Positions 1-572 of a stretch of DNA of 54,797 bases are shown piece by piece. The DNA comes from Candidatus Saccharimonadales bacterium (GTDB lineage: Bacteria; Patescibacteriota; Saccharimonadia; Saccharimonadales; JAXHNE01). The DNA lies in the NCBI GenBank assembly GCA_041600755.1, contig JBFIJL010000001.1:1-54797 (forward strand). The letters are read 5' to 3'. The translations under genes and the position numbers were made by a program. The notes below the pieces were generated by a model. That model saw only the letters and a list, made by a program, of their open reading frames with translations. It did no database searches and was not told where the DNA came from. How positions within the stretch are numbered: position 1 is the stretch's first letter; each line of letters starts with the position of its first letter.

Positions 1-226
1 CACTGAAATTGTGGACTCTTTATCTGGTGGGTGATGAGGGACTCGACCTGCATTCTGCAGGCCCGAAACTTCAGCTTTGAAAACAAGTTTTCAAGTGAAG
101 ATTTCCTTGCAAATTGCCACAGGCAATTCTCACCCCAACCCCTGGCGTCGGGTGTTCGAGTCCCGCCCAAACAAAAAGTCCACTGAAATTGTGGACTCTT
201 TATCTGGTGGGTGATGAGGGACTCGA
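1..226 (-). repeat. Direct repeat (1-46 = 181-226, period 180 bp; may extend beyond window start) of tRNA-Val 3' end plus terminator, flanking a palindrome-rich element (47-155)
   Basis: Exact 46-bp match cactgaaattgtggactctttatctggtgggtgatgagggactcga. The duplicate tRNA fragment starts in the T-loop (TCGAGTCCC...ACCA on minus strand). Confidence 0.95.
173..201 (-). terminator. Intrinsic terminator after tRNA-Val
   Basis: Minus strand AAAGAGTCCAC-AATTTCA-GTGGACTTTTT hairpin with U-tract directly after CCA. Confidence 0.8.
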
Positions 227-281
227 ACCCCCGACCCCCTCGGTGTAAACGAGGTGCTCTAGCCAACTGAGCTAATCACCC
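205..281 (-). tRNA. tRNA-Val(TAC)
   Basis: Reverse complement GGGTGATTAGCTCAGTTGGCTAGAGCACCTCG-TTTACAC-CGAGGGGGTCGGGGGTTCGAGTCCCTCATCACCCACCA folds as a full cloverleaf with encoded CCA. Confidence 0.97.
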
Positions 282-308
282 TTGATCAATCTATTGATTA
301 ACTCAATA

Positions 309-337
309 ATAGTAGTCATAACAGAGGTAATTGTCAA
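309..337 (-). promoter_or_regulatory. Sigma70 promoter of tRNA-Val
   Basis: TTGACA (337-332), 17 bp spacer, TACTAT (314-309) on minus strand. Confidence 0.8.
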
Positions 338-359
338 GTACTCTTGAGACCAAGAGTCT

Positions 360-572
360 GACCGACTTTTATACTGGTGGGGATGAAAGGACTTGACTAG
401 CTTTTTCCCTCGTCAACCTGGCATGCGCCAGGCTCGGTCACCGCTTCGCTCCAAATGATTCCTCAAACTGCCCCCGGCAGTTCTCGCCTCCGGTTCAAGT
501 CCCGAACATTTACACAGTATAAAAGCCGGCCCTTAGACCGACTTTTATACTGGTGGGGATGAAAGGACTTGA
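360..572 (-). repeat. 37-bp direct repeat (360-396 = 536-572, period 176 bp) of tRNA-Leu(CAG) 3' end plus half terminator, flanking structured element (397-501)
   Basis: Exact match gaccgacttttatactggtggggatgaaaggacttga at both positions. Confidence 0.95.
517..550 (-). terminator. Intrinsic terminator after tRNA-Leu(CAG)
   Basis: Minus strand GTATAAAAGTCGGTC-TAAG-GGCCGGCTTTTATAC hairpin with G-U pairs. Confidence 0.75.

Follow-up and report, generated by a model that had tools for sequence, protein, structure and literature searches.

Protein-less, structured repeats of the tRNA-linked type behind tRNA genes in Saccharibacteria

Introduction

At the start of contig C1 (JBFIJL010000001.1, assembly GCA_041600755.1) of a Candidatus Saccharimonadales bacterium, each tRNA gene is followed by a terminator, a structured insert, and then a second copy of its own 3' end. 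The question raised by this stretch of 54,797 nucleotides, termed the window below, is what such units are and how they came to stand behind tRNA genes. A preliminary description of the window, made from the sequence alone, had proposed a family of tiny non-autonomous tRNA-linked elements and had pointed to the T-loop crossover of tyrosine integrases. The source genome (G000) measures 808 kb in six contigs and is 97.7% complete; it was compared with three further genomes of the same genus (G001, G002, and G003; four congeners in all) and with a class sample of 251 genomes from 136 genera of the Saccharimonadia.

Repeats with such an arrangement have been described in Escherichia coli as tRNA-linked repeats (TLRs; Egan and Landy, 1978; Rudd, 1999, both cited after PMC8144298); among them are the RtT RNA of tyrT/tyrV (RF00391) and RrA, RrB, and RrF of the rrn operons. 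E. coli carries 22 TLRs at ten loci that encode no protein and have no known function (PMC8144298). The units described here are, with high confidence, TLR-type, protein-less, evolutionarily mobile structured repeats. The fuller reading, to which a probability a little above one half (about 0.55) is given, is that they are hitch-hikers of tRNA genes: target-templated copying would create them in place, and recombination through conserved tRNA sequence would spread them.

Results

Layout of the three window units

Exactly three tRNA genes were called in the window by ARAGORN and Rfam, namely Val-TAC, Leu-CAG, and Leu-GAG. In tRNA orientation, all three loci share one order: tRNA, terminator, body, and a second exact copy of the gene's own T-loop-to-CCA end running into the trailer. 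The exact direct repeats cover 46 nt at Val-TAC (1-46 = 181-226, spacing 180), 37 nt at Leu-CAG (360-396 = 536-572, spacing 176), and 58 nt at Leu-GAG (2855-2912 = 3027-3084, spacing 172; extended to 2855-2926 = 3027-3098, 72 nt at 94%). Exact-repeat and tRNA mapping thereby confirmed the shared layout, repeat lengths, and periods given in the preliminary description. Each repeat begins at tRNA position 55 in the T-loop and extends past CCA by 15 to at least 36 nt of trailer or terminator, and exact repeats of 37-58 nt within 3.4 kb cannot have arisen by chance.

The two copies are separated by 134 nt at Val-TAC, 139 nt at Leu-CAG, and 114 nt at Leu-GAG. An insert of about 105-110 bp had been described for all three genes. 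The two Leu loci have a conserved body of 105 nt (97% identical despite unrelated flanks), and the Val-TAC body consists of an 85-nt core plus tRNA-derived arms. The first part of each body is the local T-arm copied in inverse orientation, over 21 nt at Val-TAC (positions 63..43) and 10-11 nt at the two Leu loci. The long-arm type is ordered as antisense arm, short sense arm (43-53), core, and sense copy of positions 55-76. One unit is of the F3 subfamily type (Val-TAC) and two are of the F1 type (Leu-CAG and Leu-GAG), with the F3 core represented by covariance model R1 and the F1-type core by a second model, R2. The window units contain neither integrase nor cargo, as had been noted before. 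Their features are as follows, with the supporting evidence in brackets.

1..46, minus strand: Val-TAC second copy, made up of positions 55-76 (25-46) and the terminator start (1-24), and going on in contig C3 (repeat at 100% identity; C3/C1 overlap)
47..131, minus strand: Val-TAC F3-type core with three helices, P1, P2, and P3 (R1 104.5 bits; covariation)
132..142, minus strand: Val-TAC short direct (sense) arm, about tRNA positions 43-53, pairing with the inner half of the inverted arm (GGGGTTGGGGT versus tRNA GGGGTCGGGGG; hairpin in the minimum free energy, MFE, fold)
144..164, minus strand: Val-TAC inverted (antisense) arm, tRNA positions 63..43 (inverted repeat of 21 nt, 90% complementary to 218-238)
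169..204, minus strand: tRNA-Val trailer and intrinsic-terminator hairpin, first copy, forming with 205-226 the first copy of the duplicated segment (hairpin AGTCCAC...GTGGACT, then a T-run; repeat 181-226)
205..281, minus strand: intact tRNA-Val(TAC) (ARAGORN; Rfam tRNA 68.7 bits)
360..396, minus strand: Leu-CAG second copy, made up of positions 55-76 (375-396) and 15 nt of trailer (360-374) (repeat at 100% identity)
397..491, minus strand: Leu-CAG F1-type core (R2 108.7 bits; 97% identical to 2932-3026)
492..502, minus strand: Leu-CAG inverted T-loop arm GGACTTGAACC, tRNA positions 62..52 (mapped to tRNA)
512..550, minus strand: tRNA-Leu(CAG) trailer and terminator hairpin, with 536-550 (15 nt) inside the duplicated segment 536-572 (inverted repeat 515-529/538-552; direct repeat)
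551..636, minus strand: intact tRNA-Leu(CAG), promoter-like site at 675-647 (ARAGORN, Rfam, promoter scan)
2790..2876, plus strand: intact tRNA-Leu(GAG), promoter-like site at 2734-2762 (ARAGORN, Rfam, promoter scan)
2877..2921, plus strand: Leu-GAG trailer, terminator hairpin (GGTCCTTCGGGGCC and T-run), and spacer, forming with 2855-2876 the first copy of the duplicated segment (direct repeat; sequence)
2922..2931, plus strand: Leu-GAG inverted T-loop arm GACTTGAACC, tRNA positions 61..52 (tRNA mapping)
2932..3026, plus strand: Leu-GAG F1-type core (R2 106.7 bits)
3027..3098, plus strand: Leu-GAG second copy, made up of positions 55-76, terminator, and spacer, with the native flank TAGTTTTTGTAGAC next, as at the empty site of G002 (direct repeat; orthologous empty site)

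The first 5 nt of the Leu-GAG arm (GACTT) recur after the second copy and form a junction microhomology, with the repeat reaching 2926/3098. The promoter scan returned no promoter-like site ahead of the units. The promoter of tRNA-Val-TAC (TTGACA, 17 nt, TACTAT) was observed at 337-309 on the minus strand, directly past the Leu-CAG unit and another small hairpin (340-359). The tRNA genes on either side of this unit thus each have a promoter of their own.

The first position of the window lies inside a repeat, at the end of a contig. The end of contig C3 (C3:117306-117438) overlaps window positions 1-135 across the Val-TAC unit, and in this overlap the second copy spans the whole terminator with one mismatch, situated in the terminator. 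The assembly therefore broke at the Val-TAC repeat, and contigs C3 and C1 are adjacent. Body unitigs of the source metagenome, which cannot resolve identical repeats, were at single-copy flank depth (12-17x versus 16.5x), and the layout was met again at no fewer than 13 other loci of G000.

Units across the source genome

Duplicated 3' ends, for which the preliminary description had proposed a genome-wide search, were also found behind tRNA genes elsewhere in G000. A simple screen returned the window-type layout at 13/40 tRNAs, additional copies were identified at Lys-TTT, Gln-CTG, and, as a distal one, at Glu-CTC, and 16/40 tRNAs were occupied by at least one unit. Second, tandem units lie at Arg-GCG, Met, and Asn. 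Ahead of Ser-GGA there is a 5'-type unit, that is, a mirror-image, interrupted copy next to the native promoter, as distinct from the 3'-type units behind their tRNA. The bodies fall into at least five subfamilies with a common 5' module, in which GAGAAC is followed by a hairpin (5 bp, 3-nt loop) and TTTG, and with differing 3' hairpins, and the F1 model also matches the F3 unit of the window (E = 0.002). The inverted arm complements the local tRNA in every unit, even within a single subfamily. Units with a duplication reaching through the terminator (37-64 nt) were assigned to class A and those whose duplication stops at CCA or CCA+A and whose two terminators differ to class B; class A in G000 consists of the three window units together with those at Ser-GGA and Leu-CAA.

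An orphan Asn-type unit at C2:107500-107641, 10 kb from tRNA-Asn, is composed of GGAGCCAA, the tRNA-Asn terminator, an arm, an F2 core, and an exact 22-nt 3' end of tRNA-Asn; its left side shares just these 8 nt with the tRNA end. Judged by its sequence, it looks like a re-integrated recombination product. Separately, an F2-like core was observed at C1:56872-56959, about 2 kb past the window end, behind a putative transfer-messenger RNA (tmRNA) gene and followed by ...GCCAGCTCCACCA, which would make tmRNA a further target of the family; ARAGORN called no tmRNA in G000.

Turnover among congeners

Units are gained and lost rapidly between close relatives. The Leu-GAG site, filled in G000, is empty in G002, where the downstream flank is the same as after the second copy in the window; in G003 a different subfamily occupies it, and in G001 two units are nested there. 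Empty and filled alleles in relatives were what the preliminary description had proposed to look for. At Val-TAC, G001 and G002 have only T-loop scars of 10-11 nt. The subfamily differs by genome at Met, Gln, and Leu-CAA, and most sites of G003 are empty, including Met2. Tandem, nested, and decayed units plus short scars were all encountered among the congeners. The native terminator of a relative matches the first terminator at Met2 and Leu-GAG of G003 and the second at Arg-GCG and Val-GAC, which, together with the orphan Asn unit, fits insertion and deletion by recombination at any tRNA-end copy.

In G002, a mirror-image unit runs from the native promoter through tRNA-Leu positions 1-54 and an F3 core to positions 56-63; between these and the intact tRNA-Leu lies a spacer that contains an inverted T-loop. 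On contig C7 of G001, between tRNA-Leu-CAG and tRNA-Val-TAC, a pseudo-tRNA-Val (positions 1-22, a D-loop insert, and positions 23-46) was observed ahead of an F3-like core, with the intact tRNA-Val directly downstream.

Distribution and junctions in the class

A covariance-model search beyond the source genome had been proposed, and with R1 it recovered the F3 core from 56/251 class genomes in 43/136 genera, with up to at least 18 copies per genome and scores of 80-105 bits. The body is therefore not confined to the window, recurring at other tRNA loci and in other genomes. Within the class sample, F1 proper was matched in G000 alone. For a conserved 24-nt core motif, a 185,579-species collection gave 96 matching stretches, nearly all from Saccharibacteria metagenome-assembled genomes. 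The motif was absent from all viral contigs searched, and phage carriage was ruled out on that ground. The F3 core adjoins at least 21 tRNA species, and the layout was seen in dozens of independent assemblies, including complete single-contig genomes. A context census of 95 cores across genomes gave the following counts.

3'-type with matching tRNA: 33/95, of which 29 lie 72-140 nt away, one is a second unit in tandem (272 nt), and three are at 2.8-3.9 kb
5'-type: 13/95
No matching tRNA within 8 kb: 33/95
Core at locus edge: 16/95

Junctions were mapped in seventeen 3'-type and seven 5'-type units from other genomes. In the former, the terminal copy starts at positions 55-58 and ends at 76, except in a few decayed copies, and is preceded by an inverted arm of about 62..44 and a direct arm of about 42..54; identity mostly stops 0-2 nt past CCA and once at +15. 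The 5'-type units end 1 nt before the core and carry the inverted arm immediately past positions 55-62. At tRNA-Gly-GCC, the core sits in the D-loop (24/27). The duplication had been regarded as target-derived, which stands for the window copies with their own terminator and up to 14 more nt, but in most copies elsewhere identity ends at CCA. The class-A units of the window are thus the rarer form and probably also the younger one.

A selected fold on the tRNA-sense strand

Covariation was analyzed on 30 F3 core copies with RNAalifold, 500 shuffles, and slid controls. The consensus contains three helices in which 24/32 pairs are compensatory and 98.6% of cells are paired; the observed covariation was reached by 0/500 shuffles, and in slid controls no more than 4 pairs were compensatory. 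In these helices, 42 G.U cells stand against 4 A.C cells, with one G.U pair retained in 27-30 copies, an excess that places the fold on the tRNA-sense strand. The Val-TAC unit likewise has an MFE of -56.2 kcal/mol (z = -3.7) in the sense orientation versus -48.2 kcal/mol (z = -2.3) on the opposite strand. The F3 core is under strong selection for a fold of the tRNA-sense strand and hence is more than a scar. A T-arm on the opposite strand, as in a tRNA-like gene read backwards, was ruled out: the putative stems are unpaired and the G.U/A.C asymmetry favors the tRNA-sense strand.

In the predicted fold of the Val-TAC unit, the antisense arm pairs with the T-loop copy in a closing helix, the arms form a hairpin, the core has three helices, and the acceptor strand plus CCA is left over as a 13-nt tail. 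In single-stranded form, as modeled, the antisense arm would clamp both sense pieces, so that the core would protrude at 54/55 of a pseudo T-arm, with the acceptor 3' strand and CCA as a tail.

Comparison with the TLRs of E. coli

The architecture agrees with that of the E. coli TLRs in several respects. Both lie directly behind a tRNA (in E. coli also behind 5S rRNA) and in the same orientation, as is true of the three window units and of 29/33 3'-type units in the census. Some units in both occur between dual terminators, and tandem arrays are likewise common to both. The rrnB T1-T2 terminator region includes one TLR. In both, the 3' end of the unit copies the end of the upstream RNA, over 18-19 nt in E. 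coli and 21-22 nt here (55/56-76), and the unit is closed by an antisense 5' arm, the RtT consensus pairing GGGGAAGGAU with AUCCUUCCCC and the window arms covering 63..43, 62..52, and 61..52. A T-loop palindrome and an internal GAGAAC-hairpin module are also in common. In the tyrT/tyrV units, an arm antisense to tRNA-Tyr 59-68 and a T-loop palindrome are joined by a core containing GAGAAC-GTTGCC-ACA-GGCAAC and GGAGCGAAGCG and by a copy of the last 18 nt; the GAGAAC-hairpin and GGAGCGAAGCG motifs recur in F1 and are the sole short motifs in common. In the terminal lysT/lysV units, the tRNA and its terminator are followed by a spacer, an inverted arm (61..49), a direct arm (49..58), the core, a copy of 59..76, and a second copy of the terminator that takes in 11 nt more; the class-A layout of the window is exactly this.

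Within E. coli, internal TLRs between tRNAs (lysT and valU-lysV operons) were observed to have a short antisense arm only (CGTGAAGGAT), and terminal ones to combine a full T-arm palindrome with a duplicated terminator. On the evidence of this difference, E. coli likewise has two structural classes.

The rrn TLRs stand between dual terminators and are transcribed by read-through, with an RNA end 3 nt past the repeat that was read as a processing signal, and E. coli TLR RNAs are expressed and processed, some binding Hfq and CsrA (PMC8144298). The Saccharibacteria units differ from the TLRs in their junction (54/55(56) in the T-loop versus 58/59 in E. coli), in having several modular subfamilies and 5'-type and D-loop arrangements, in their rapid turnover between congeners as opposed to the reported conservation of rrn TLRs across Enterobacterales, and in occupying about 40% of the tRNA genes of a 0.8-Mb genome. 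Rfam at lax thresholds matched only tRNAs, on the region as on a single unit, and RF00391 gave no match to the single unit at E <= 10. Membership in RF00391 (gathering threshold 45 bits) was rejected, the best score in G000-G003 being 13 bits at an unrelated place versus 20 matches in E. coli K-12.

Candidate enzymes

A co-occurring integrase, reverse transcriptase (RT), or transposase had been suggested as a partner of the units. The tyrosine recombinases of G000 amount to one Xer-type enzyme, with a syntenic counterpart in each of the congeners, and a dedicated integrase was rejected as the search, which did not extend to serine recombinases, returned Xer only. Neither Y1 transposase (PF01797) nor TnpB (PF07282) had a match in G000; a TnpB/omega-RNA-like arrangement, with the core as scaffold and the tRNA-end copy as guide, was ruled out since TnpB was not found. 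No RT was found in G000, G002, or G003. The sole RT among the four congeners was observed at G001:C9:88786-89391 (426 aa, generic group-II-intron/DRT-like), about 1 kb from tRNA-Met2, and just ahead of it lies a 195-aa open reading frame with no family match. An origin by reverse transcription, suggested by copy boundaries at +1 and CCA, was ruled out given the three RT-free genomes and the generic accessory nature of the gene in G001.

RAYT-like Y1 genes (about 210 aa, HUH motif HVHML) were present in 48/251 class genomes, including G001 and G002, the latter with its gene (C13:3184-3834, 216 aa, HVHML) between ruvC and ruvA. They were absent from G000, G003, and several complete high-copy genomes such as G082 (at least 17 copies). 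The Y1 genes are without flanking units, and a unit was nearby at 1/6 loci examined. The genomes G104, G263, and G271 instead carry multi-copy canonical IS200-type TnpA of about 145-165 aa. The RAYT-like Y1 gene remains a lead and not an explanation.

Discussion

Formation and spread of the units

The proposal of a family of tiny non-autonomous tRNA-linked elements is upheld by the 16 occupied tRNAs of G000, the 56 core-positive class genomes, and the turnover among congeners. Beyond the preliminary description, the analysis added the inverted tRNA-derived arm, the 5'-type mirror units, the architectural match with TLR/RtT, and the selected sense-strand fold. In the preferred reading of the units as TLR-type hitch-hikers, a new unit would arise by templated DNA synthesis of the copy-choice or fold-back type, which would copy the core from an existing unit and re-copy the target from the T-loop onward. 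Such re-copying would give a target-derived duplication including the terminator, as in the three window copies. Templated synthesis in place is put forward tentatively and is, taken as a specific mechanism, somewhat doubtful. It fits a duplication whose left boundary is constant, in the T-loop that donor and target have in common, and whose right boundary varies. The microhomologies at Leu-GAG and Leu-CAA agree with it too, as does the fold-back cap found wherever an interrupted tRNA copy is truncated. Two-switch copying of the simple kind, in which the donor arm is kept, was ruled out as the general route, since even units of one subfamily carry arms matched to their local tRNA.

Between strains, the units may spread by homologous recombination through conserved tRNA sequence; the tRNA is conserved between species and its flanks are not, so that identity would usually stop at CCA or +1. 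Loss or amplification would follow from recombination between tRNA-end copies. By analogy with E. coli, the units may be transcribed by read-through of the terminator, with the tRNA-end copy serving as a 3' processing site.

Several observations weigh against this reading. For the long-arm F3 units, a template-switch route would have to include several switches, and the recurrent, precise junction at 54/55 (D-loop in tRNA-Gly) looks more deterministic than replication accidents. Clear junction microhomology was present in 2/5 class-A units (GACTT at Leu-GAG and GGGA at Leu-CAA). With respect to E. coli, R1 and R2 had no match on the TLR loci at E <= 1 and E <= 10, respectively, and pairwise core similarity with TLRs relative to shuffles was marginal, with z mostly below 2.5 and two comparisons at 4.0-4.4. 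The kinship with the E. coli TLRs is architectural; common descent is possible, and the architecture may also be convergent. The Y1 gene was found in 19/56 core-positive versus 29/195 core-negative genomes (odds ratio about 2.9, phylogeny-uncorrected), and given this association an enzyme acting in trans is possible. On the transcript side, the core was not found in RNA runs, and the sole match was a 118-nt metatranscriptome contig from a relative at a depth of about 7.

Alternative explanations

The islands of tyrosine integrases at tRNA 3' ends (T-loop sublocation) resemble the units in their tRNA-end direct repeats from the T-loop, the classic att signature, in keeping the tRNA whole, and in tandem accretion and occasional cargo between tRNA and distal repeat, some cores lying 2.8-4.4 kb off their tRNA with inserted genes between. 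Taken as cargo-less, integrase-mediated remnants such as cis-mobilisable elements (CIMEs), the units would stem from a T-loop crossover by a tyrosine or serine recombinase; attP would have supplied the first tRNA end with its terminator, and the body would be a leftover arm of the element. The CCA-limited identity of most units elsewhere is as with attP-borne tRNA ends. This origin, and with it the T-loop crossover cited in the preliminary description, is nevertheless highly improbable, as identity in the window runs 15 to at least 36 nt past CCA into the unit's own terminator and spacer (CCA-limited at most loci elsewhere), the inverted local T-arm of every unit is unpredicted by the attP model, and a single core family is found at at least 21 tRNA species, with 16 tRNAs occupied in G000 and only one conserved, syntenic Xer-type tyrosine recombinase. 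The 5'-type and D-loop arrangements also speak against it, and the core is a conserved, covarying single-strand fold rather than decaying DNA, with its motif in no viral contig. Small, protein-less, hairpin-rich, multi-copy, intergenic sequences with strand-specific structure are otherwise known as REP/REPIN (RAYT) and as the IS200/IS605-derived miniatures (PATEs). An HUH/Y1 transposase of the RAYT/IS200-like kind that recognises hairpins and acts on single-stranded DNA, in trans and often lost later, could move the core into the T- or D-loop of tRNA-derived DNA, with survival only of insertions in spare partial copies. This would account for conserved one-strand hairpins at a precise position (54/55; 24/27 in tRNA-Gly) and for the gene being commoner in core-positive genomes and present in the congeners G001 and G002. 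It is still unlikely: the gene is missing from G000, G003, and the complete genome of the high-copy G082, the association ignores phylogeny, the Y1 genes are not unit-flanked (1/6 loci near a unit), and transposition of the IS200/IS605 type gives neither target duplication nor inverted target copy. REPINs and PATEs have constant ends, without a long target duplication or a target-derived inverted arm, whereas the left arm here varies by locus, copied from the local tRNA, and the duplicated target is 21-72 nt long.

The units might alternatively be vertically inherited small-RNA genes of tRNA operons with a regulatory or processing role, clamped to their own T-arm and immobile, their patchiness reflecting frequent loss. 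The strong structural selection on the sense strand, the expression, processing, and partial Hfq/CsrA binding of TLR RNAs in E. coli (PMC8144298), and the co-orientation of the units with their tRNA, lacking a predicted promoter of their own, are in line with such genes. The combined evidence makes immobility quite improbable, however, since congeners hold differing subfamilies at the same tRNA as well as empty sites with intact flanks, 97% identical cores stand at two tRNAs with unrelated flanks, and tandem, nested, decayed, and orphan copies occur, some inside pseudo-tRNAs; in addition, the F3 core is found in just 56/251 genomes yet scores 80-105 bits across families, which points to horizontal spread. 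An artefact of assembly, in which mis-joined repeats would have produced the second tRNA-end copies, had been named as a possible refutation and could be suspected from the window starting in a repeat at a contig end and from unitigs breaking at repeats. Its probability is practically negligible, as the unitig depth of the body equals that of the flanks, and 16 tRNAs of G000 show the layout, which was also seen in dozens of separately made assemblies, complete genomes among them, and in the finished genome of E. coli K-12.

A bolder extension of the TLR-type reading is that the Saccharibacteria units and the E. coli TLRs are branches of one unrecognised class of protein-less elements. As a guide or splint, the antisense T-arm would pair with either half of the T-arm (or D-arm) of a given tRNA and place the core exactly, with self-insertion or copying by a nucleic-acid-templated reaction, through RNA or single-stranded DNA, that uses host enzymes only. 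We regard this as an unlikely proposition. If true, it would amount to a programmable, base-pair-guided colonisation of stable-RNA genes that does not destroy them.

Implications for Saccharibacteria and TLR-type units

For annotation pipelines and island finders, the units are of practical relevance in that they break assemblies at tRNA genes, mimic the att sites of islands, and create pseudo-tRNA fragments. Saccharibacteria genomes of about 0.8 Mb, shed of most mobile DNA, still keep dozens of strongly structured, protein-less copies. The TLRs have stood unexplained in the tRNA and rRNA operons of E. coli since 1978, and the same architecture is far more active in the ultra-small Saccharibacteria, which thus offer a natural comparative system for the origin and role of TLR-type units.

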